From: a virus
IMG/VR virus record: IMGVR_UViG_3300025759_000064
Location: 46,920-110,919 of that record
DNA length: 64,000 nt
Strand: one strand, 5' to 3'
Shown here: piece after piece, positions 3-10,303 of the stretch
Numbering within the stretch: the first letter of the stretch is position 1
Layout: every line of letters starts with the position of its first letter
Notes under the pieces: model-generated
Databases searched by the model: none
What the model saw: only the letters and a program-made list of their open reading frames with translations
Told to the model about the DNA's origin: nothing
Program-made: the position numbers and the translations under genes

Positions 3-650
3 TCTTGTTGGAATACCTGCTTTTTGTAATCTAATTAGGTCTTCTCTAAAAGGGTCAAATATCTTATGTTCTCCAATTCTACCTTCTCTCCATAATTGAG
101 CGGCCTTGTTATCAAAATATCTATCCGCTTTATTAGCAACTAGAAGAATCATTTTTGGTGCATACTTTTTCCCTTTTCTCCAACTTTTCCAATTTCTATA
201 TCTATAATTTCTTTCTATTATATTATCTACTAAAAATCTAAATCCACCTATTTGGGTTAAAGCATCGTCGCCACCTTTGAAAGCCCTATCATCAAACATA
301 AATATCGCATATTCGCATTGTCTAGCGACCATATCATCTATCCAAAGATTCCAATATCTTTCTTCTCCACCTAAATCAGCAGAGTGAATAACTCTTCTCT
401 CTCCTTCCCAACGCACTCTTTTACGTGTAGGTTTAGGTAAAATATAGCGAGTTATTAATTTGAAATGTTTAGTCCTTTCGTGTTCAGGTATTTCTTCCAT
501 TTCACCGGGCGTAGTCATATATTTGTCTAAAGTAGTTTTACCAACCATAGACGCGCCATATATTCCCACTCTTCTAGATTTCCAATTATTGTAGGCTTGT
601 TTACCGTATAAGGCTACACCCACTAATATACTGCCGCTTGCCGCAACCAT
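3..650 (-). CDS. Arf/Sar/Ras-superfamily small GTPase with hydrophobic N-terminus (3' end runs off the window)
   Basis: Absent from the ORF track because it is truncated. My translation from ATG 650 is MVAASGSILVGVALYGKQAYNNWKSRRVGIYGASMVGKTT...ADLGGEERYWNLW...AIFMFD...ILLVANKAD, which contains G1 (GxxxxGKT), G3 (DxxG) and G4 (NKxD). Confidence 0.85.
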   Translation of the reverse strand, partial: MVAASGSILVGVALYGKQAYNNWKSRRVGIYGASMVGKTTLDKYMTTPGEMEEIPEHERTKHFKLITRYILPKPTRKRVRWEGERRVIHSADLGGEERYWNLWIDDMVARQCEYAIFMFDDRAFKGGDDALTQIGGFRFLVDNIIERNYRYRNWKSWRKGKKYAPKMILLVANKADRYFDNKAAQLWREGRIGEHKIFDPFREDLIRLQKAGIPTR

Positions 651-655
651 ATCAA

Positions 656-943
656 TCAACTAAACTTATTTGTTAACCATGTTCCAAAGTCTGCTACTTT
701 TTGATATACCCATTCAACTGTCATTTCCCATAAGTTCCAATCTGTATTGGCTTCCATTGCAGAAACAGCCATTGCTGCACCGACAGAACATAATATTGTT
801 CTAATCCAACCCAGTCCCCATTCGTAGGTATTATCTACTGTATTTGCTAAATGCATAGCACGCAGTGTTTCTTCAACTGAATCATCACCAACATTGCGAA
901 AAATACGCAATGGAGAAGGAATTAACTGTCCGGGTAGTACCAT
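656..943 (-). CDS. small membrane protein
   Basis: Hydrophobic segment WGLGWIRTILCSVGAAMAVSAM; co-oriented with and directly upstream of the GTPase. Confidence 0.65.
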   Translation of the reverse strand: MVLPGQLIPSPLRIFRNVGDDSVEETLRAMHLANTVDNTYEWGLGWIRTILCSVGAAMAVSAMEANTDWNLWEMTVEWVYQKVADFGTWLTNKFS

Positions 944-954
944 ACTGCTTTACC

Positions 955-1620
955 TCAGGAGGCTTTGTATCTTAAATCCGGCGTACCGTCTTTCTTTAAT
1001 CGCTGATTTGTTGGTTGCCCATCTCTTGGTGGTATAGGTAATGTTCGTGGAGGTAAGTTAGACTGGCTTGTCATTGCATCTACTGCTCTTTGTGTATTCG
1101 ACAAACCTAGATTCATCGGTGCTTCTTTTTGTGCAGAATGAGTAGGTACTCCAAATGGATTAGCGGTGTTATGATAATCACCAGCGACACCATCGGATAT
1201 ATTACTACCATTAAAGAACTGACTATTTTGCATTATTCTACTAGGGTCTTCTTGCATTAAACGTAATTCATGTTCTAATTGTAATTCCATTTGTCTTAAT
1301 TCTAAGTCTGCTCTACGTTGGTCAAAACCCATTTGTTGCTGTCTATACATGTTTTGTCTATTTCTTTGCATTTCAGCAACTTCTACTTTTTCTTTCATAG
1401 ATTGTTCAAAGAACATTTTGAATAAGTAATAGGCTATTGTTTGTACTGCGAGCGCACCCATAGCATACGTCATTCCATTAATAGTGGAATTAGCATTAGC
1501 CCCTGTTGGTAACCATAACCCTGAACTATACACTCCTACTGCTACTCCTACTAACGCAGATTGGGACAAAATTAGCCCTGTCATTTTCATTTCATTTGTA
1601 TCTCCGATGTCTCTACTCAT
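955..1620 (-). CDS. two-TM membrane protein with Q/R-rich coiled coil
   Basis: Two hydrophobic helices (LILSQSALVGVAVGVY; MTYAMGALAVQTIAYYLF), then a coiled coil and C-terminal RLKKDGTPDLRYK. Confidence 0.7.
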   Translation of the reverse strand: MSRDIGDTNEMKMTGLILSQSALVGVAVGVYSSGLWLPTGANANSTINGMTYAMGALAVQTIAYYLFKMFFEQSMKEKVEVAEMQRNRQNMYRQQQMGFDQRRADLELRQMELQLEHELRLMQEDPSRIMQNSQFFNGSNISDGVAGDYHNTANPFGVPTHSAQKEAPMNLGLSNTQRAVDAMTSQSNLPPRTLPIPPRDGQPTNQRLKKDGTPDLRYKAS

Positions 1621-1670: not shown

Positions 1671-1741
1671 TCCGAATATTCTAATGTCTTGTATATACAT
1701 AAAGAATAATATGTACTATTGTATAGATAGACAATCGGAAT
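1671..1741. repeat. 71-bp imperfect palindromic element, copy A
   Basis: TCCGAATATTC...GTATATAC...TGTATAGATA...ATCGGAAT; aligns without gaps to the reverse complement of 47988-48058. Confidence 0.6.
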
Positions 1742-2217
1742 CATCGGACAGGCCATATACCTTCAGGTGCATATTTTTGCCACATAGATTGAGCCTCAGG
1801 TGATTGGTCATTATCAGGGGTTAATGTTTGGTCATAATTAGATAACACTTCTGCCATAGTATCATAGAGATTTTTAGCATATCCTCTTTGTCGATAAGGT
1901 TGTTCTGTTCTCGCATTCATAACACTGGTAGTGTTTCTATCGCCTAAAGTTCTAGCATTCATTCTATTCCTATCACTAATATTCCCAGCGATATTTAATC
2001 TAGGTCGTGTTCTTTTCAAAGGTTTACCAAAATAAGTTCCACCGTTTTCTCGCCTTCTAACATCTATGTCTGTTTGTAATATTTCATTAGTAACAGGGTC
2101 TTGAAAATCAGCAGCCCACGTATCGTGTTCGCCTGATGGTTCAGATGTTACTCTTCTTAATGAATCGGGAATCATAGGCGCTTTGAGCACAATCCACGCT
2201 TGGTCGAAGGCGGTCAT
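1741..2217 (-). CDS. leader-tagged GNAT-like acetyltransferase
   Basis: N-terminal MTAFDQAWIVLK; acetyl-CoA motif A-like YRQRGYAKNLY; C-terminal QSPEAQSMW. Confidence 0.7.
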   Translation of the reverse strand: MTAFDQAWIVLKAPMIPDSLRRVTSEPSGEHDTWAADFQDPVTNEILQTDIDVRRRENGGTYFGKPLKRTRPRLNIAGNISDRNRMNARTLGDRNTTSVMNARTEQPYRQRGYAKNLYDTMAEVLSNYDQTLTPDNDQSPEAQSMWQKYAPEGIWPVR

Positions 2218-2432
2218 TGATTATCACTCCACCAAGTATCTACTTCAGGGTCATTCATCAAATCTTCATTAAAATAATAGAAATGCTTCTTGTAACAATC
2301 ATCACATAACATTCTTGGAAAATCAACGCCATCATCAAGTGTATGATTCTGACTGTTTAACAAAGCACCACAATGTGAACAAGCGCCCACTTCTAATTTT
2401 AGCAAAGCCCACGCTTGGTCGAAGGGGTTCAT
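2214..2432 (-). CDS. leader-tagged small Zn-finger protein
   Basis: Likely start MNPFDQAWALLK at 2432 (TGATG overlap with the upstream stop); CxxC...CxxC. Confidence 0.65.
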   Translation of the reverse strand: MNPFDQAWALLKLEVGACSHCGALLNSQNHTLDDGVDFPRMLCDDCYKKHFYYFNEDLMNDPEVDTWWSDNQ

Positions 2433-2791
2433 CAGCAGTTCCACCGTTTGAGCGCTGCGCCCTTCGGTGTTAGTTTTCCACCTTTACTGGTCGGTCCTTT
2501 GCTCCCACCCATTCTAGCACAGAATGACTTTCTTCTGTTTGCCGCTTTACTACCGGGTTTTAGTGAACTTGGTTTTTTAGTAACAGGTCTTTTCAAGTTT
2601 GCACCTGTCTCTCGCTTGAACTTTGCACGCCCTTTTGCATTTAGACCACCACTTCTGCTATGCCTGTTTGGATTGTAACCGTGAAATGGTTTTGATTTCT
2701 TTTTTGCTTTTTCAAACACAGAATCTAACAGTGCTACTGATGCTTGTTGCATAGGTGTGCAACAGTCACATGTGTCAAATCCCATAGTCAC
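2432..2791 (-). CDS. basic conserved phage protein (DUF6321-like)
   Basis: GGLNAKGR...NLKRPV...RRKSFCARMGG...ALKRWNC is a recognisable marine-phage family; Cys-rich N-terminus. Confidence 0.6.
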   Translation of the reverse strand: MTMGFDTCDCCTPMQQASVALLDSVFEKAKKKSKPFHGYNPNRHSRSGGLNAKGRAKFKRETGANLKRPVTKKPSSLKPGSKAANRRKSFCARMGGSKGPTSKGGKLTPKGAALKRWNC

Positions 2792-3096
2792 CGTAACACA
2801 CCCACCATCTTAACAATTGTTGGCTTTCCGCCCACACCTTGCTTTTTTGCACGTTTTCTTTTTGTTGCTGCTTGCTTCTGACCTGATGACATAGAACCTG
2901 ATGTTTTTGGCGTTTTGCTTGAAACCTTGATTGATGGTCTGCATTTAGGATAACCTTTACTAGATTTATTTGCTTTACTTCTACCACACGGAGGATGCTT
3001 ACCATCTTTAGTACGCGACACATCTACCCATTTTTCTTTGAACCAGCGATTTAGGTTCTTAACTACAAGAGTATCATGGCAAGTACATCGTGTCAT
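2788..3096 (-). CDS. basic conserved phage protein
   Basis: LNRWFKEKWVD...PCGR...YPKCRP motif seen in marine phages; overlapping start/stop with both neighbours. Confidence 0.65.
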   Translation of the reverse strand: MTRCTCHDTLVVKNLNRWFKEKWVDVSRTKDGKHPPCGRSKANKSSKGYPKCRPSIKVSSKTPKTSGSMSSGQKQAATKRKRAKKQGVGGKPTIVKMVGVLR

Positions 3097-3254
3097 ACTA
3101 CTCCTACCATTTTCTTAATACTCTTTTGTTTATCCATCAATGCGTAACAAGGACATTTAGGAGCGGATGCTGAACATTGATTACCCTCAATCATACAAAC
3201 GCAAGGCGTTTTACTAGTAGCCCCGCAACAACATTTGTCTTTCTTAAGTTTCAT
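3093..3254 (-). CDS. 53-aa Cys-rich, metallothionein-like peptide
   Basis: My translation: MKLKKDKCCCGATSKTPCVCMIEGNQCSASAPKCPCYALMDKQKSIKKMVGVV; ATGA overlaps at both ends. Confidence 0.6.
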   Translation of the reverse strand: MKLKKDKCCCGATSKTPCVCMIEGNQCSASAPKCPCYALMDKQKSIKKMVGVV

Positions 3255-3421
3255 TTTTTCTTTTTCCCCTTAAACTTACCACGACAATATTGAACAGCCC
3301 ACCCGTTTGCATACGCAGATGGGTAAACATCGAACTTTTTCTTTGCGGCTGCTTTTCCAGCAGGGCATAGTTTTTTCCAAACCGCATCCATACCAACACA
3401 ATGACCGCATTCGCAACTCAT
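3251..3421 (-). CDS. 56-aa basic conserved phage protein
   Basis: My translation: MSCECGHCVGMDAVWKKLCPAGKAAAKKKFDVYPSAYANGWAVQYCRGKFKGKKKK; the KFxVYPSAYAN motif is common in phage small proteins; ATGA overlaps. Confidence 0.65.
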   Translation of the reverse strand: MSCECGHCVGMDAVWKKLCPAGKAAAKKKFDVYPSAYANGWAVQYCRGKFKGKKKK

Positions 3422-4983
3422 TTTTTCACCTTAACCCTGCGAAGTGTACCTTTATTTTTGAAATGCCTTGCTCTATTTGAGTGTGCACTCTCTAAAGTTA
3501 ATTTTCCACCTTGCGTGTGGCTGACATCTTTACCACCTTTTCCGTATATGCCCCGCTTCCTACGCTCTGTGTTTAATTGCTCACGATACTTTACACGCTT
3601 AGGTGTCTTTTGATATTGCTTGTCATACTCTAATTTGTGAGCAAATGCTGCTGGCGACTTGCGCTCTTTGAGCAACTGATAGGCTATGTCCATTGGTTCG
3701 CTGGCTAGTTTCCGATTTTTCCACTCAAAACGGGTAGTATATTCAGGATGGTCTTCGGGAAGCAACGACATTGGAGGACGTTCTTTACTTGGCTCAAGCC
3801 GTCTATATTCATTTTCAAAATGTCGTCTGTTCTCCCTTTTTTGTTTTTCATAATACCTATTGAACTCCTTTATTGAATCCCAATAGTCTTGTTCATTATA
3901 ATCTTTTATATTTCCATATCCGTATAATCTTTCAGAGCCTTCATCTCGCTCGTATGGTTGGATATTGCTGAAATAATCATATAACATATTTTCATCCATA
4001 TCTTCGTCTTCCTGAATATTTTTAAGCAACTGGAGGGCTATGTCCATTGGACTACCTTTAGTCAATTCGTAGATTTCATCTTTAGTTTTACCATAAAATA
4101 AATTATGTAACTCATCTGCATCCATATCTTCTATCTTTTTTCGTTTAATCGGCTTACCCCAAGGTAAAGGTTTGTCGCTCCATCTACTAATTCGGCCACT
4201 TGGCCTTCTGTCTGTATTACTAATATTACGACCTAAATTGGGAGTGCCCATCTCTAGTGTTTCGTCTTTATAATGTCGTCGCAATGGTACTTCAACTAAA
4301 CTTTCACGTGGAATATTTTCATCATGCTCAATAAACGCTTCTGCTAAATCTTCTTTTGCTTCGTCACTATCTCTTCTGTGCACTTTTCCGTATTTATCAA
4401 GATTTCCACGTACATAAACTAACTTATCGGGGGCATTATGGGTGTATAAATTATTAATATCTCCCATTGTATTATTTGAAACCCAAGTTCCAGCCTTTGC
4501 ATTTTTTAATCCAGCGAAAAGTTTTCGCGCGCGGGGATGATACTTACCATCTCTATGCGCACCTGCCATATAATACGGTACATTTGATATAGGGTCTTTC
4601 CTCCATCTCGAATTAGGGTCTTCCCAAACAGGGTCATTATCATGGGGTATTTCAGGAATCAGTGGTGGAAGTCTTGGGTCACCTTCTTCATAGTTTATAT
4701 TAGAGCCATCTTGCGGTACAGGTTCTCCCGCAGGTCTATGCGCCCCTTGTACACGAACAGCCCTAACGGGGTCCCATCCTTCCCAACCAGTTGTGTAATC
4801 TAATCTAGGGTCATGCATTGGCAACTTTGTTTGATAATTATTTTCAATTGTGTACTCCGGGTGATTTGGAAACAATTGCGCTCTTCTCGCTTGTTCCATC
4901 ATATCCATATATTCTTTCGATTCTTTAATAGCCTCTTCATCTTCTAACGATTTTAGAAAAGCCCAAGATTTGTTAAACACCAT
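3418..4983 (-). CDS. leader-tagged multi-module protein (ART-like domain, acidic module, C-terminal HNH-like module)
   Basis: Likely start MVFNKSWAFLK at 4983; internal PMDIALQLLK and PMDIAYQLLK separate the modules; GTWVS...EAFIEHDENIP is ART-like; KDVSH...ESAHSNRARH is HNH-like. Confidence 0.65.
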   Translation of the reverse strand: MVFNKSWAFLKSLEDEEAIKESKEYMDMMEQARRAQLFPNHPEYTIENNYQTKLPMHDPRLDYTTGWEGWDPVRAVRVQGAHRPAGEPVPQDGSNINYEEGDPRLPPLIPEIPHDNDPVWEDPNSRWRKDPISNVPYYMAGAHRDGKYHPRARKLFAGLKNAKAGTWVSNNTMGDINNLYTHNAPDKLVYVRGNLDKYGKVHRRDSDEAKEDLAEAFIEHDENIPRESLVEVPLRRHYKDETLEMGTPNLGRNISNTDRRPSGRISRWSDKPLPWGKPIKRKKIEDMDADELHNLFYGKTKDEIYELTKGSPMDIALQLLKNIQEDEDMDENMLYDYFSNIQPYERDEGSERLYGYGNIKDYNEQDYWDSIKEFNRYYEKQKRENRRHFENEYRRLEPSKERPPMSLLPEDHPEYTTRFEWKNRKLASEPMDIAYQLLKERKSPAAFAHKLEYDKQYQKTPKRVKYREQLNTERRKRGIYGKGGKDVSHTQGGKLTLESAHSNRARHFKNKGTLRRVKVKK

Positions 4984-4984
4984 T

Positions 4985-5203
4985 CTAAATCCATCCTGAT
5001 GTCCTCTTTGATTGTTGTGTCTTAGGTTGTGACGTAGGTTGAGGCGGATTGGCTTGCATATTTCTTTTAGCATCTGCGTTTTTAGCCATTATCATGTCTT
5101 GTAGAGACATAAAGCGACCTGAGCCGGGAGGATATTCGTGCATATCAATGGGGTCTGCTTTGAGAAATTGCCAAGCCTCATTGAATGCGGTCAACCCAAT
5201 CAC
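4985..5203 (-). CDS. leader-tagged small protein
   Basis: LTAFNEAWQFLK leader; tightly packed between its neighbours. Confidence 0.6.
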   Translation of the reverse strand: MIGLTAFNEAWQFLKADPIDMHEYPPGSGRFMSLQDMIMAKNADAKRNMQANPPQPTSQPKTQQSKRTSGWI

Positions 5204-6345
5204 CTATTTGCAAAAACATCTTTTGGCATACGAGGTCTTGGTTTGTTAGGGTCTGCAAATCGTGGGTCACCCGGTCTAGGCGCACCACGTGGTTTTCGCA
5301 TTTCAGGCATACCTTCCGCCATTATTGCAGCCCGTTCCGCTTCATTCATTTCCGCTTGGCGTGCATCTTCATCACCAAACTCAGGTTTACCGTATGGCGG
5401 TCCTAAATCTTCCCCATCATATTCAGGAAAACCTTCATCATCGTATCTACTTGGACCGGGCATACTATCTCTAGTGTAATTATTCGCCCCTTTTCTATGT
5501 AAATCTTCGTCTATAAAACGTTGAGGAGACATATCAGGAAGATTTCGTGCTCTGACGTGTTCGGGTAAATTAGATATTCTAAAGTTTTGCTTCAACATTT
5601 CAAATGCTTTTTGCATAGGTTTACCCCTGCCGGGGATTCGATGTAGCATTTTTGAATTGATAAGTTCTTGTAATTTTGCCTCACTTGCTGCTCTTTTACC
5701 AAGTTTAGTGTTTTTTAACGCTTCTTGCAAAAATGGGGCATAATCATCCTTAAAATCCCGCACCTCTTTATTAGTTGGGTGTGTTTGTTGGTATGAGTAA
5801 GATTGTGGTGCTTTGGTTCTTCTTTGGTTATCTTTGTTAGCATAAGCATTCATTTGGTCCATAGGGTCATCTACACTTCCATATGGCATACTATCGGCGT
5901 AGTACTCAGGGTGCATATCTAACGTTGGGGTTTTACCATCACGGTAATCTAATGCACTTTCATTTGCACGAAGATTCAGATTTGGCAAGTCTGCATTTTC
6001 GTCATTATAACTACCTGATGTCAAATGGGGGTTTTCTTTCATGCGCCTCTGCATCATCCCATATATCGCAGGGTGTATAGTACCCGCACCCTCTTGCCTC
6101 TCTCCGACATCAGGGCCTTCTCCTTGGTAAGTGATTTCTGCTAGATTGGCTCTGTCATAAGCAGGTTCAAACATTTGATGCTCAGGTAGCGCTTTCAAGG
6201 TCTGCCACGATTTCTTCATAGGCATAGAGCCGTATTTCTTCATGTTCGGTGTAGCGGCATCGGTGGGCTTAGTTTTCATTTTTGGCCCAATGCTGATAAT
6301 TACAGCAACGCCCTTTTTCTTTTTCTTGTCTTTCATTTTAATCAC
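5200..6345 (-). CDS. low-complexity multi-module protein with two internal leader-like motifs
   Basis: 381-aa ORF containing MPMKKSWQTLK and PMQKAFEMLK; P/D/E-rich. Confidence 0.65.
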   Translation of the reverse strand: MIKMKDKKKKKGVAVIISIGPKMKTKPTDAATPNMKKYGSMPMKKSWQTLKALPEHQMFEPAYDRANLAEITYQGEGPDVGERQEGAGTIHPAIYGMMQRRMKENPHLTSGSYNDENADLPNLNLRANESALDYRDGKTPTLDMHPEYYADSMPYGSVDDPMDQMNAYANKDNQRRTKAPQSYSYQQTHPTNKEVRDFKDDYAPFLQEALKNTKLGKRAASEAKLQELINSKMLHRIPGRGKPMQKAFEMLKQNFRISNLPEHVRARNLPDMSPQRFIDEDLHRKGANNYTRDSMPGPSRYDDEGFPEYDGEDLGPPYGKPEFGDEDARQAEMNEAERAAIMAEGMPEMRKPRGAPRPGDPRFADPNKPRPRMPKDVFANR

Positions 6346-6347
6346 TT

Positions 6348-6695
6348 TTAATTTTGATATTGTGGATTATTTTGCTGGTACGGTGGCCTTTCATGCTCAA
6401 ATGGGTTTCTTTTAGCCTCAAATGGTTTGGGTTGATGAGGTTGGTAAGGGTTGTAAGGTAGGTTGTTATCATTTGGATTACCTTGTCCGTATGGCGCATT
6501 TTGCTTCATTCTCTCCATGTACTCGTCCAAAGTTCGCTGTTTACCTTCTTTTGATGGAGAGGGGGCGTAAGGGTTAGGTTGAGGATTATTTCGGTAAGGT
6601 TGGTTAGATGGATTGGAAGGCATTGCTCGGTGGTATAAATAATTCGGGTTAGGTGCGCTTTTCAAAAACGTCCACGCTGTTTCAAATGCTGTCAT
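6348..6695 (-). CDS. leader-tagged N/P/Q/Y-rich protein with PIP-box-like motif
   Basis: MTAFETAWTFLK leader; KQRTLDEY. Confidence 0.65.
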   Translation of the reverse strand: MTAFETAWTFLKSAPNPNYLYHRAMPSNPSNQPYRNNPQPNPYAPSPSKEGKQRTLDEYMERMKQNAPYGQGNPNDNNLPYNPYQPHQPKPFEAKRNPFEHERPPYQQNNPQYQN

Positions 6696-6964
6696 TCTCC
6701 TTGACCCCCTCTAAATGACTCAAACCATTCGGGATGGTTCTGTCTGTAAAAATCAATTATTTTAGCATCTTCTTCGTGGTCATCTATTTTTTCACGTAAT
6801 TTTGAAGCCTTTTGCTTCTTTTTACGGCTATCAGACCTTGTTTTACCAGTTTGATTCAGTGCCTCTTCCATGTAACTTGGCATATCGTGCTGCATAGCAA
6901 CTTGAGAGGAGGGGGACATTTTTAGCACATTTATTGCTGCATCTATTGGATTCATTTTATTCAC
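6692..6964 (-). CDS. small protein with degenerate leader
   Basis: MNPIDAAINVLK at the N-terminus. Confidence 0.6.
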   Translation of the reverse strand: MNKMNPIDAAINVLKMSPSSQVAMQHDMPSYMEEALNQTGKTRSDSRKKKQKASKLREKIDDHEEDAKIIDFYRQNHPEWFESFRGGQGE

Positions 6965-7136
6965 CTTTTACGCATCGGCGTGGTAACTACGTGCACCGCT
7001 AGTAATGCGATATGTCTAATATGTTACGCTCTATCCTGAGGGCGTGGTGGCTTCCATTCCGCAGGGTCAAGTTGTTGTAAGTTCTTCTTCTTTCCACATT
7101 CATTACCTCAAAAAAAATAAGCAGACTGGTGGGAAT

Positions 7137-7760
7137 ATGGAAGTCACCGCACCTGTTTTGGTTACTAAAGGCGTAGGAGAAACAGCGCTAAACTTGGGCG
7201 CTCTTGCACTTGCACCATTTACTGGTGGTATGTCGGCAGTTGCCTTAGGAGCAGCAAGAGGCGCACAGGCATTGAGAGCGGTAAAAGCAGCAAAAGGTGC
7301 AAAAACTGCCGTAGGAACTACTCAAGCCGCTAAAACTACTGCTGGTAAAGTTGCAGTTAAAGACCCAATGGCTATGGCAAACGCAAGACATGCAGAGCAA
7401 ATAGCAGAGGCTGGTGAAAGCGGAGGTAGATTAGGTCAATTGCGAAGTAGAGCAGTAACACCAACGGCGGCAGAAGAATTAGAGGCTGCAACTTCAAATC
7501 AAGCAAGAATGAAAGATATAGCAAGCACTACTGATGCAGCAGCAGAAGCGGAAAAAAATCTTGCCGAATTACATGAGCAACAAAAAACTGCAACAGATAC
7601 AGCAGGGGCTGCTGCTGTTGTGGGAGTACAAGGCACAAACGCTGCCGCACAACAAAAACAGGCACAACAAAAAGCCGAAATGGAAAGAATAGAAGGATTA
7701 GCGGAAGATGCTAGGTCAAAAGCCAGCACCGGAACTGGTGGGAAGGTAGCGGTGGCATGA
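7137..7760 (+). CDS. Ala-rich helical protein with hydrophobic glycine-zipper-like N-terminus
   Basis: ATG at 7137; LGALALAPFTGGMSAVALGAA followed by an Ala/Gln-rich coiled coil. Confidence 0.65.
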   Translation: MEVTAPVLVTKGVGETALNLGALALAPFTGGMSAVALGAARGAQALRAVKAAKGAKTAVGTTQAAKTTAGKVAVKDPMAMANARHAEQIAEAGESGGRLGQLRSRAVTPTAAEELEAATSNQARMKDIASTTDAAAEAEKNLAELHEQQKTATDTAGAAAVVGVQGTNAAAQQKQAQQKAEMERIEGLAEDARSKASTGTGGKVAVA

Positions 7761-7853
7761 TTGCCATGGCTCTAAAAGGCTACATTAAACTGCAATTAGC
7801 CCAAATGATACAGCATTTGATTGTCGGCTTAGGACTTGTAGTTGTAGTTACTG

Positions 7854-8702
7854 TTATACTTTTATCTTAGTATTTACAAACTTGACTAGCGGTTCTAAGT
7901 CTTTAAGCGTAACACCACAATCAAGATTCTCTCTATCAGCCCAGTGTACTAACTGTTCTGTGGCTAAATTGCCCCCTGAGCCGGGTACAAACGGGCAACC
8001 GCCCATTCCTCCAATGCTAGAATCGAACTGTGTGATGCCGCAATCGAAGCCAGCAGACAGATTATCGTACATTCTGCCCTCTCTTACACCGTGATGTAGG
8101 TGCAATGCGATATTTGCATCTATCTTTCTGTCAGTTAAACGCATTACTTTGCGTATCATCGATGGGTTAGCATTACCTATGGTGTCAGACAAAACTATTG
8201 TATCGCCTAAGGTATTTGCCCATTCCATGGTTTTTAGCATGTCTTTTGGCGGTATTTCGCCCATAATCGGGCATCCAAAAGATGTAGAAAGGTAAACTCT
8301 GACGTTTTTGGTCGGTATTCTGTCTAATGCGCCACTGTATTCAGCAAAAATTGTGTTTAGGTTTTTACCTAAGTTATTGACATTGAAGTAGTTTGACGGT
8401 GAGAAAAAAATATTATATTTTTCTACACCAACAGACTTTGCCCTTTCAACACCCACACGGTTTGGCACTAACATACCCAAGTTGTGCGTAGAGGCTAAAT
8501 CTTGCACTTTGAGGAATACTACTTCGCTATCAGCCATATTTGGAACTCTGTCAGGATTGACCATTGAGCCAATTTCAATATTTTTGATACCCGTATTTGC
8601 AATTTTACGTATCAAAGTCACCTTATCGTGCGTAGATGTGATTGTATCTGCGCTCTGCAACCCATCGCGTGGTCCTACTTCGTAGATTGAAAAGTCGCTC
8701 AT
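7854..8702 (-). CDS. hmgL: hydroxymethylglutaryl-CoA lyase (DRE-TIM metallolyase)
   Basis: IYEVGPRDGLQ, SFGCP, SDTIG, LHLHH (metal-binding HxH) and GGMGGCPF...GNLATE are all present; likely start at 8702. Confidence 0.9.
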   Translation of the reverse strand: MSDFSIYEVGPRDGLQSADTITSTHDKVTLIRKIANTGIKNIEIGSMVNPDRVPNMADSEVVFLKVQDLASTHNLGMLVPNRVGVERAKSVGVEKYNIFFSPSNYFNVNNLGKNLNTIFAEYSGALDRIPTKNVRVYLSTSFGCPIMGEIPPKDMLKTMEWANTLGDTIVLSDTIGNANPSMIRKVMRLTDRKIDANIALHLHHGVREGRMYDNLSAGFDCGITQFDSSIGGMGGCPFVPGSGGNLATEQLVHWADRENLDCGVTLKDLEPLVKFVNTKIKV

Positions 8703-9361
8703 TATTCTGTCTCCCAATCCCACATATCGGGTCTTTCAGTTTCACCAACACCCCCACCGTAAGCCAAATCTTTAATGTCTCTCGGCACATTGCCCCAAGT
8801 AGATTCATCATGCCAATTCATTGGCTGCCCTACGTTTTTACCCTGTCTCATCATAACTAATCGGTGCGGGTCAATCGCCTCATGGATAAGCCCTTCAGGA
8901 AATCCTTCAGGACTTTGTTTTGCGTTCCTCCACTGCGCATCGAGATTTTTCGCGCCCTCAGGTGTCATACGAATCCCAACCATTGAATGTCCCATTCCTT
9001 TTCCACTAGGCGTAGCACCAGCGTATGCGGGTGTAACATTACGAAAATCGGGTTTAGTCACCCAAAATCCTTTACCCCCACCACGTGTAGTATCAAACTT
9101 TTTGTCATTTTTACCAGCCATTACATCTTCCCATTGCGAATTATCTTCTCCATAACCACGGTTTGCGTTTTGCGGCAAAGGCTGCAAACCTCGATTATCA
9201 ATATCTTGCATATATTCGCTCGGTACAACACGCATCATCGACATCGGCCCAGCCCGACTAGGAAAATCTGCATGGTATTGACCCAAGGTAGTTTGGTCAG
9301 GGTGCAATTCAGGATACAAAGGTGACTTTAGAACAGCCCATGCTTGGTCAAAGGGGTTCAT
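8702..9361 (-). CDS. leader-tagged putative ADP-ribosyltransferase-fold protein
   Basis: MNPFDQAWAVLK leader; R...IDNRGLQP, GFWVT, AYAG, VGIR and EGLIHEAIDP follow the Tpt1/ART-like pattern. Confidence 0.5.
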   Translation of the reverse strand: MNPFDQAWAVLKSPLYPELHPDQTTLGQYHADFPSRAGPMSMMRVVPSEYMQDIDNRGLQPLPQNANRGYGEDNSQWEDVMAGKNDKKFDTTRGGGKGFWVTKPDFRNVTPAYAGATPSGKGMGHSMVGIRMTPEGAKNLDAQWRNAKQSPEGFPEGLIHEAIDPHRLVMMRQGKNVGQPMNWHDESTWGNVPRDIKDLAYGGGVGETERPDMWDWETE

Positions 9362-9729
9362 TGTTGACCCTCCCGATTCGCCCAAAAACCCTCAGCATCC
9401 TCGCTCTGCATGTGATTAGTGTTCTGCACAGTAAGTCCAGTAATTTTCTCAGCGTGGTTGTACATGTCCGTGGCTATACCCCCTCTCCGAAAACTCGGAT
9501 GCGTGTAACTAGCCAAAGGAATCAAGTTACCGTCAGCCACTGAAAACTTTGCATAACCATATTTTATGGGCTTTTGGTCGTATTTATCCAAACCCTGTAT
9601 GGCCGCAACCTGTAAATTACCATGTTTATCGTATTCATGCTGCAACGAGAAATCTTCGGGGTCTCCGTAGTAAGGGAAATCCGGTTTAGGCATTTTGAGT
9701 ACAGCCCACGCTCGGTCGAAGGCAGTCAT
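9358..9729 (-). CDS. leader-tagged GNAT-like acetyltransferase
   Basis: MTAFDRAWAVLK; THPSFRRGGIATDMY; QSEDAEGFW. Confidence 0.75.
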   Translation of the reverse strand: MTAFDRAWAVLKMPKPDFPYYGDPEDFSLQHEYDKHGNLQVAAIQGLDKYDQKPIKYGYAKFSVADGNLIPLASYTHPSFRRGGIATDMYNHAEKITGLTVQNTNHMQSEDAEGFWANREGQQ

Positions 9730-10259
9730 TCATGCACCCCATCATACGGCCAACGTAGTCTTATCCCTCTATAATCATCTTGAAACTTAGTGTGAGCAGA
9801 ACGCCTCTCATCTCCCTCATACGGCAATTCCATGTGTTTTGCCCAAAATGGGGCTGAGGATGCGCTTAACTGACTCGGAAATGTCGTTAGCCTAGCATTT
9901 TTCTTCTTCGCCATCTCATTCGCCAAATTATAAACACCCGTCATCAAACCTCTTCTTCTGTAACCCTCTCTAGTTTTTGCATGAGAAGTTTTCCATTCAG
10001 GGCCATAATGCTCGCTAATATGATTAACAGCAAGCGGTTTTCCATCATTATCCATAATTCTTGTATTTAGCCCATACATATCATATTCCGACACCATTGG
10101 ATAGATTTTGTTTGTTTGAGGGTCTTGAAATTGTGCTTCCATCCCACCGTCTTGTACGTCAGCCTCCTTAATGGGGTCCCACCCTTCTATTTCTTTAATT
10201 GAGCCGGGGATTATCGGCATCTTGAGTATAGCCCACGCAATGTCGAATGCGTTTACCAT
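9726..10259 (-). CDS. leader-tagged GNAT-like acetyltransferase
   Basis: MVNAFDIAWAILK; TREGYRRRGLMTGVY; SASSAPFW. Confidence 0.75.
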   Translation of the reverse strand: MVNAFDIAWAILKMPIIPGSIKEIEGWDPIKEADVQDGGMEAQFQDPQTNKIYPMVSEYDMYGLNTRIMDNDGKPLAVNHISEHYGPEWKTSHAKTREGYRRRGLMTGVYNLANEMAKKKNARLTTFPSQLSASSAPFWAKHMELPYEGDERRSAHTKFQDDYRGIRLRWPYDGVHE

Positions 10260-10303
10260 GCGCCTCACACAGCGTTACTCTATATCGAACTACCGCTAAA
10301 TTA

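Follow-up and report, generated by a model that had tools for sequence, protein, structure and literature searches.

A short tag peptide joins and separates variable accessory protein modules in a magrovirus

The window analyzed here is a stretch of 64,000 nucleotides (bases 46920–110919) of the 110,919-bp magrovirus contig IMGVR_UViG_3300025759_000064. Two long open reading frames (ORFs) on its minus strand, of 521 aa (3418–4983) and 381 aa (5200–6345), carry several copies of a peptide of about ten residues ending in LK, and the same peptide forms the leader of small genes in a surrounding array. We found that this tag stands at the N-terminus, in the interior, or at the C-terminus of proteins made of unrelated modules, that modules are fused and split at it, that selection acts on its peptide sequence, and that it lies outside the folded domains. 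Being independent of position, the tag could mark hypervariable accessory modules for one shared partner, most likely the assembling procapsid, and its LK end may be a protease site; we hold this reading to be evenly balanced.

A peptide ending in LK recurs on the late strand

When the ORFs of the whole genome were searched with a loose pattern of the tag, 15 matches were found; 300 residue shuffles of the ORFs gave 0.51 on average and never more than 3. All 15 lie on the minus (late) strand between 42.7 and 57.2 kb of the genome, 13 of them at 2182–10247 of the window and two in a 631-aa ORF located two genes upstream of TerL. The nine leaders of this genome align over the tag alone, with L and K as the sole invariant columns. 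The logo of 330 distinct internal copies reads x-(G/S)-E-P-M-(D/E)-I-A-(F/M/L/W/Y)-(Q/R)-L-L-K, and LK ends the motif in 315 of 316 proteins as well as in 33/33 and 24/24 instances in related loci. The hydrophobic residues, spaced i, i+3/4, i+7, fall on one face of a short helix; a short, one-faced amphipathic helix is the form that docking motifs usually take. Up to seven tags were found in one protein (P0122), one of them an internal copy of the N-terminal type (AFERAWIVLK). Variant leaders of an LDRALLLLK type also occur.

The tag is also found at C-termini. The final gene of the array ends in ...AWNLLKSE (VAFSLAWNLLKSE-stop) in the related loci L006 and L008, and the equivalent gene on contig L135 ends in ...FQLLKRG (EPMDIAFQLLKRG-stop), in both cases two residues after LK. 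There, the tag can neither release nor start a module, and docking is thus the sole role that fits the N-terminal, internal, and C-terminal positions alike. A signal-peptide or Tat reading of the tag was rejected, given that it has no long enough hydrophobic core and no RR and that internal copies exist.

Back-translated PMDIAFQLLK had exact matches on 32 IMG/VR stretches. In the species genomes of prokaryotes, 185,579 in all, there were only two, one of which is out of frame and due to chance. The other lies on a magrovirus-like contig binned in a 'Maricaulis sp.' metagenome-assembled genome (NZMJ01000140.1, 8.8 kb; L135:1–1000). This contig has a magrovirus-type tagged gene and an orthologue of the window's 221-aa membrane protein, and is probably a mis-binned viral contig rather than alphaproteobacterial. 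The tag is restricted to viruses.

Modules are exchanged at the tags of the 521-aa ORF

ATG 4983 is the most likely start of the 521-aa ORF, as an earlier note on this DNA had assumed; the homologues begin MVFNKSW. On the minus strand the ORF encodes, in this order, a tag (MVFNKSWAFLK, 4951–4983), a module with a weakly ADP-ribosyltransferase (ART)-like fold (module 1, 4234–4821), a second tag (PMDIALQLLK, 4021–4050), an acidic middle module (net −9, 3697–4020), a third tag (PMDIAYQLLK, 3667–3696), and a basic C-terminal module (net +18, 3421–3666), the charges bearing out the acidic and basic labels first given from the letters alone.

Module content varied among the 210 homologues of this ORF, 38 of which were aligned. 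Module 1 always ends in ...(G/S)(E/S)PM(D/E/K)(I/K)A(F/L)(Q/R)LLK and is then followed by different, unrelated cassettes, the second tag being the junction of the variable part. The acidic module is swapped for unrelated sequence or absent in homologues such as P0007, P0008, P0004, and P0018; P0007 and P0008 have no cassette after the first module, and P0002 and P0013 have two cassettes and an extra tag. The final tag always precedes the same highly conserved basic module. 

The 521-aa protein was modelled by AlphaFold2 with alignments, and the 381-aa protein was also modelled by AlphaFold. In the 521-aa model, only about residues 55–250, corresponding to module 1, were confidently folded (predicted local distance difference test, pLDDT, 70–90). 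The three tags appeared as isolated helices with pLDDT below about 50, at residues 3–12 and 431–439 in low-pLDDT stretches and at residues 312–321 with pLDDT about 43. Nearly all the top VIA-align matches of module 1 have the ART fold, led by AvrPphF (Z 5.8, root-mean-square deviation 4.8, 108 aligned) and including MbcT, Tpt1, DarT1, ParT, and Scabin (range Z 4–5.8). A Foldseek search of the 521-aa model against the PDB returned nothing at E ≤ 0.001, an Atlas search with module 1 gave no usable match, and Pfam matched nothing in the 521- and 381-aa ORFs.

The basic module matches phrog_6437 (E 1.9e-19). Searched alone, it was found in 473 representative clusters of 114–1040 aa, nearly always at the C-terminus. 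Sometimes it is encoded by itself behind a leader, as in P0170 (start MNPIDVAWRLLKER) and P0130, and it occurs without a tag in the cyanophages Syn5 (gp50) and S-CBS2 (gp045) and in small proteins on other viral contigs that consist of this module only, which makes the tag an add-on outside that fold. Its alignment conserves D-x-S-H...N-R-A-R, and the nearest named Atlas cluster (score 0.92) has HNH_3 in 40% of its members; no Pfam match and no PDB relative (phmmer/profile search) were found for it, and its AlphaFold confidence is low. The names ART-like and HNH-like that the earlier note gave to the first and last modules are thus weakly favored by the Z scores and by the HNH_3 share, respectively, but found no match in Pfam.

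Downstream of the 521-aa gene lie small Cys-rich or basic ORFs (2788–3421, minus strand), two of which end in ...KKMVGVV and ...KPTIVKMVGVLR. In P0216, a sequence related to these ends, KPTIVKMVAVVK, occupies the usual place of the tag before the basic module and may be a divergent variant of the tag.

The 381-aa ORF gains and loses modules at the same joint

The start of the 381-aa ORF is most likely ATG 6336 (MKDKKKKK...), which is kept in relatives and would make the first tag internal (residues 39–48), after a basic N-module of 38 aa. This tag (PMKKSWQTLK, 6193–6222) is followed on the minus strand by module A (5620–6192), a second tag (PMQKAFEMLK, 5590–5619), and module B (5203–5589), both tags being present as the earlier note had read them. 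A separate 72-aa gene with the leader TAFNEAWQFLK (4985–5203, minus strand) comes next.

Comparison with relatives showed that each of these parts can be lost, freed, or fused at a tag. By tblastn, residues 6–51 run straight on into residues 243–381 in the L006, L007, and L008 orthologues, module A having been lost exactly between the tags, and module A alone forms a leader gene in P0374 and P0377, with M(R/T)PIDAAFS(L/V)LK. In P0371 and P0387, module B has a gene to itself, with MTAFDEAFQMLK at the N-terminus. Relatives also carry the 72-aa gene as an in-frame fusion behind module B; in P0387, the internal tag DIFGKAWDFLK comes after module B and leads into residues 147–212, which are 74% identical to the 72-aa gene. 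The AlphaFold model of the 381-aa protein is mostly of low confidence, residues 180–232 being its sole confident segment. Its first tag forms an isolated helix (residues 39–49), and the second a helix (residues 240–252) behind a low-confidence break.

These observations bear out the proposal, made in the earlier note, that leader-cargo cassettes were fused in frame: homologues swap or delete modules at the tags, the same modules stand alone with leaders (P0371/P0387, P0374/P0377, P0170/P0130), and order and content vary between loci. As modules occur in both stand-alone and fused forms and the tags lie outside the confidently folded parts of both proteins, neither of the objections foreseen there, tags buried in folded domains or modules of invariant order that never occur separately, applies.

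The recurrence of HPEY in these modules, also pointed out in the earlier note, was upheld, with three occurrences against 0.1 expected, all in the 521- and 381-aa ORFs (4852–4863, 3739–3750 in the acidic module, and 5902–5913 in module A; minus strand). The motif lies inside the modules, away from their borders, and is conserved in homologues. A related NHPEWF was seen in a 90-aa gene at 6692–6964.

Selection acts on the peptide

Identical residues among the 15 copies use the same codon at a frequency of 0.43, against 0.42 predicted by codon usage, indicating selection on the peptide and not on the DNA. A DNA-level element, whether a recombination site or an RNA signal, was therefore rejected as a general explanation, there being no synonymous conservation and the DNA repeats being confined to the tag. 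Within the 521-aa ORF, the copies encoding PMDIALQLLK and PMDIAYQLLK are, as reported in the earlier note, identical at 26 of 30 nt, and the repeat is exactly 30 nt long with no extension beyond the tag. These two copies share 7/8 synonymous codons, and their DNA suggests a recent duplication.

The first hydrophobic position is Met in 289/330 internal tags, where N-terminal leaders have Phe. GGTGA or GGAGA stands at −9 to −5 of the tag ATG, like at genuine starts of this genome, and Shine-Dalgarno (SD)-like 5-mers precede 6/23 tag ATGs (these 23 sites being non-independent) compared with 3% for the remaining internal ATGs and 38% for called starts. The codons preceding the tag (G/S-E/S/K-P) read GGNGAR, GGTAG, or GGGGTAAA (window 4048–4059, 3694–3705, and 5617–5628, with equivalents in L004–L013). 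Nested in-frame starts may thus produce some modules directly. However, internal tags without a start codon exist, such as PIEIAFQLLK (ATA) and D(V/I)FGKA(F/W)xMLK, and the codons chosen for G-E-P follow genome usage (GAA 18/20 vs 75%, p 0.19), so that the SD-likeness may follow from the amino acids alone. With these two facts, nested starts cannot be the general mechanism. The earlier note had favored a protease or docking signal over a mere translation-start feature; the peptide-level signal agrees with this, but the dismissal of a translational role went too far in view of the SD-like GGN-GAR-CCN before the internal Met.

Virus and genomic neighborhood

The contig encodes a family-B DNA polymerase (PolB), a thermosome-type chaperonin, and an SNF2 helicase and, on the minus strand, TerL, the portal, a major capsid protein (MCP) of the SU10 type (genome 24881–26050), and an S78 prohead protease that continues into a scaffold-like tail (genome 26086–27465). 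The protease matches both Peptidase_S78 and S78_2. The PolB, thermosome, SNF2, and head genes make up the set described for group A magroviruses, a group of tailed viruses attributed to marine group II archaea (PMC5434244), and by this gene content, the contig is a group-A-like magrovirus. Relatives of the MCP (77–100% identity) are found on more than 598 IMG/VR stretches; no relative of it was found in the PDB by a phmmer/profile search, and the first 12 kb gave no match to deposited phages by megablast.

The array of tagged genes covers 1741–10268 (minus strand), with leaders at 2182–2208, 2397–2423, 5159–5185, 6660–6686, 6920–6946, 9326–9352, 9694–9720, and 10221–10247. Equivalent arrays in L004–L011 vary in gene number and in the fused or split state of their genes. 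The tagged genes are co-oriented with and flank TerL, portal, the S78 protease-scaffold, and MCP on the late strand. GNAT-like motif-A strings (RRGGIA, RRRGLMTG, RQRGYA) occur in three leader-tagged proteins (9358–9729, 9726–10268, and 1741–2217, minus strand); in Pfam, the 123-aa leader gene gave a sub-threshold match to GNAT, and the 158-, 227-, and 180-aa leader genes gave nothing. An untagged gene in the middle of the array (7854–8723, minus strand) is HMGL-like, i.e., of the DRE-TIM aldolase/lyase type (Pfam E 7.8e-27). Directly downstream of the array, the region 3–1620 (minus strand) holds a small GTPase-like ORF (weak Roc match, G1 GxxxxGKT) after two membrane/coiled-coil proteins.

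Two LK motifs are conserved in the protease-scaffold (L094:1209–2585, minus strand), x-I-x-I-L-K-G close to the N-terminus and F-S-I-L-K-E-D where the protease domain ends. The scaffold C-terminus ends in ...MSWDEVHNLASKAFE, and that of a 115-aa neighbor (genome 33472–33819, minus strand) in ...MSWDDIHEMADQH..., the two having the C-terminal motif MSWD(E/D)(V/I)H in common. The MCP carries SELLK/AD, and the relatives retrieved in the MCP homologue search were all at least 79% identical.

Elsewhere on the contig, the sole long ORF of the first 15 kb exceeds 5,000 codons and runs off the contig start on the minus strand (L003:2–7000 plus L002:1–8205, i.e., genome 1–15205); it presumably encodes a giant tail or adhesin-type protein. 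A 380-aa ORF between portal and TerL (genome 35964–37106, L001:8965–10107, minus strand) contains the LAGLIDADG-like motif GFLDADGYITI and is likely a free-standing homing endonuclease.

Proposed docking in the procapsid and the alternatives

How could one peptide serve so many proteins? We propose that the tag forms a helix of about ten residues, (G/S)-E-P-hydrophobic-D-x-A-aromatic-x-x-L-K, that would be recognized by a single common partner. Cassettes of tag plus module are encoded either as separate small genes or as in-frame head-to-tail fusions, where every module retains a tag of its own. The partner is most likely part of the assembling procapsid, either the scaffold-protease or the inner surface of the capsid protein. 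The modules would then be loaded in the head and delivered with the DNA, as T4 internal proteins and Alt are by means of a capsid targeting sequence (CTS), and the viral S78 prohead protease would possibly use the LK end as its P2-P1 site. Cleavage by the S78 protease after LK, following procapsid loading, is plausible because HK97 cuts K/S, and the cargo types resemble packaged effectors elsewhere (an ART-like fold, a weak GNAT match). The full chain of events, in which a universal, position-independent tag docks modules inside an HK97-fold procapsid, singly or as beads on a string, before the S78 protease cuts after LK, we put forward tentatively.

Several points weigh against this proposal. 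These viruses are uncultured and known from genes, and we infer both the presence of the tagged proteins in virions and their proteolysis. Some copies may act in translation, given that the internal Met follows an SD-like GGN-GAR-CCN at the distance found at genuine starts. The MSWD(E/D)(V/I)H motif, probably the capsid-binding tail of the scaffold, is a more obvious capsid-docking element than the tag, and as the scaffold seems to dock by this other motif, the receptor of the tag need not be the capsid. The array adjoins the small-GTPase and membrane-protein cluster, which offers an alternative destination. Finally, the MCP and protease relatives compared are at least 76% identical, so that conservation of their LK sites is uninformative for the MCP and only suggestive for the protease.

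The most serious rival is pure polyprotein processing, the release mechanism put forward in the earlier note, in which the tag would be a site for the S78 prohead protease or a host enzyme, a cut after LK would free the modules, and the leaders would be propeptides. LK is nearly invariant, HK97 provides a precedent for cleavage after Lys, LK sites are kept at the N-terminus and domain end of the protease-scaffold, and the tags sit in flexible linkers; fused and split forms would, moreover, yield equal products. Yet C-terminal tags with two residues past LK would be pointless as cut sites, and what is conserved is about ten residues long and predicted to form an amphipathic helix, while protease sites are usually short and bound in an extended form. 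Cutting therefore cannot be the only role of the tag, and docking fits all its positions better; we regard processing alone as a minority possibility, though a substantial one. Docking to a partner other than the capsid, such as the Arf/Sar-like GTPase with its membrane cluster, the viral thermosome, or a host factor, would instead gather the modules at a membrane or folding machine. It would suit an amphipathic helix, an array next to a GTPase and two membrane-protein genes, a genome that encodes a thermosome subunit, and a scaffold that uses another motif for capsid binding. The tagged genes are, however, co-oriented with and flank the head-morphogenesis genes in a pattern close to the T4 internal-protein locus, and nothing ties the tag specifically to the GTPase or the chaperonin, which leaves this option unlikely.

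More improbable still is that the tags are chiefly nested genes, the Met of an internal tag being an in-frame start from which the downstream module is also made alone, as a tagged protein, without proteolysis. Lambda C/Nu3 is a precedent for nested genes, and the prevalence of Met, the GGN-GAR-CCN-ATG context, and the SD-like 5-mers speak for it, against which stand the tags without a start codon, the ordinary G-E-P codons, and the non-independence of the 23 sites. Lastly, the tag could have no common function, being a helix inherited by duplication or a recombination or translation signal at the DNA level. The synonymous codons shared by the two copies in the 521-aa ORF would agree with this, as would the aromatic position, which matches between copies of one protein in 98/185 cases against 64 ± 6 in shuffles; the latter excess fits lineage-specific co-evolution with a receptor and, equally well, recent duplication with shared ancestry. 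Over all copies, however, synonymous conservation is absent, and hundreds of clusters retain the tag, at all positions and on modules unrelated to one another, despite fully diverged flanks. With the codon data and the conservation of LK, this last explanation is largely refuted, and we consider it very improbable.

Significance and comparison with known systems

Magroviruses rank among the most abundant viruses of marine archaea, yet the majority of their genes lack an assigned function. One recognizable tag would mark all of their variable accessory proteins, which may be injected together with the DNA and which include an ART-like domain, GNAT-like proteins, and the basic module with its 473 protein clusters. 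It would reveal how such proteins are reshuffled, merged, and divided at one shared joint, and it offers a simple handle on cargo loading in an archaeal HK97-type capsid. If the procapsid-loading proposal holds, these abundant ocean viruses would carry a large, shuffling repertoire of injected host-takeover effectors; if cleavage after LK holds, the first specificity and substrate set of an archaeal-virus prohead protease would be defined; and if both hold, the tag would be the archaeal-virus counterpart of the T4 CTS, bridging to encapsulin targeting peptides.

The magrovirus descriptions consulted, PMC5434244 among them, make no mention of a shared leader or of polyprotein-like ORFs, and a full-text literature search for the tag strings returned nothing relevant, so the tag seems to have escaped description. 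This kind of system is already known from T4 and the giant phages. What is new is the archaeal-virus setting, the context of an S78-type protease, the LK-ended helical tag and, above all, the use of a tag at every position as the joint for fusing and splitting modules.

Polyvalent proteins combine ARTs, GNATs, and nucleic-acid-binding domains in one polypeptide, their genes lie close to those for packaging, and they are predicted to accompany the DNA (PMC5512222). The magrovirus proteins resemble them in joining mutually unrelated modules in one chain, with domain identities that are weak (ART-like Z 5.8; phrog_6437); no Pfam or PHROG match to MuF, zincin-like MPTase, or other hub/peptidase domains was found in the 521-, 381-, 631-, and 808-aa ORFs. 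They differ by the one short helix repeated between modules, which that class does not show. A short site repeated at successive module boundaries, as seen in the magrovirus ORFs, is what viral polyproteins have. In the giant phages phiKZ and SPN3US, the prohead protease cuts head and inner-body proteins at many sites with the motif S/A/G-x-E (PMC9026906). There, too, a short motif is common to many proteins, in internal and propeptide positions, but it is a bare cleavage site and not a longer helical tag, and the protease family differs.

The targeting peptide of Family 1 encapsulins (GSLxIGSLK) docks inside an HK97-fold shell (PMC10960027). Like the magrovirus tag, it is short, with three hydrophobic residues and a terminal Lys, and the N-terminus of the magrovirus protease, E-T-I-G-I-L-K-G, looks similar to it. 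However, the encapsulin peptide is extended and usually C-terminal, whereas the magrovirus tag is predicted to be helical and is mostly N-terminal or internal.

The closest parallel is the T4 CTS, formed by the ten N-terminal residues of diverse internal proteins, which combines targeting and processing residues, ends in a cleavage motif of gp21, and sends these proteins to the scaffolding core; the set of cargo genes is hypervariable from one relative to the next (PMC3012670, PMC9026906). The ADP-ribosyltransferase Alt travels in the capsid likewise (PMC5512222, PMC9026906). In both systems, a peptide of about ten residues sits on unrelated proteins encoded together in a tailed virus with a prohead protease, with cargo that may include an ART-like enzyme as in the case of Alt, and the cargo varies strongly between related viruses while the tag is kept (arrays L004–L011). 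In both, the end of the tag resembles a protease site; gp21 processes the T4 peptide, and the S78 protease may do so in the magrovirus. The LK motifs of the magrovirus protease-scaffold also recall the cleavage-motif-like sequence near the N-terminus of T4 gp21 (PMC9026906). The differences are just as clear. The magrovirus belongs to the archaeal viruses, and its protease is not of the gp21 type but an S78 enzyme like that of HK97, which cuts K103/S104 (PMC10275583); the magrovirus tag ends in LK instead of L/I-x-E and has no sequence similarity to the T4 CTS; and, unlike the CTS, it also occurs internally, in up to seven copies per protein, and at C-termini.

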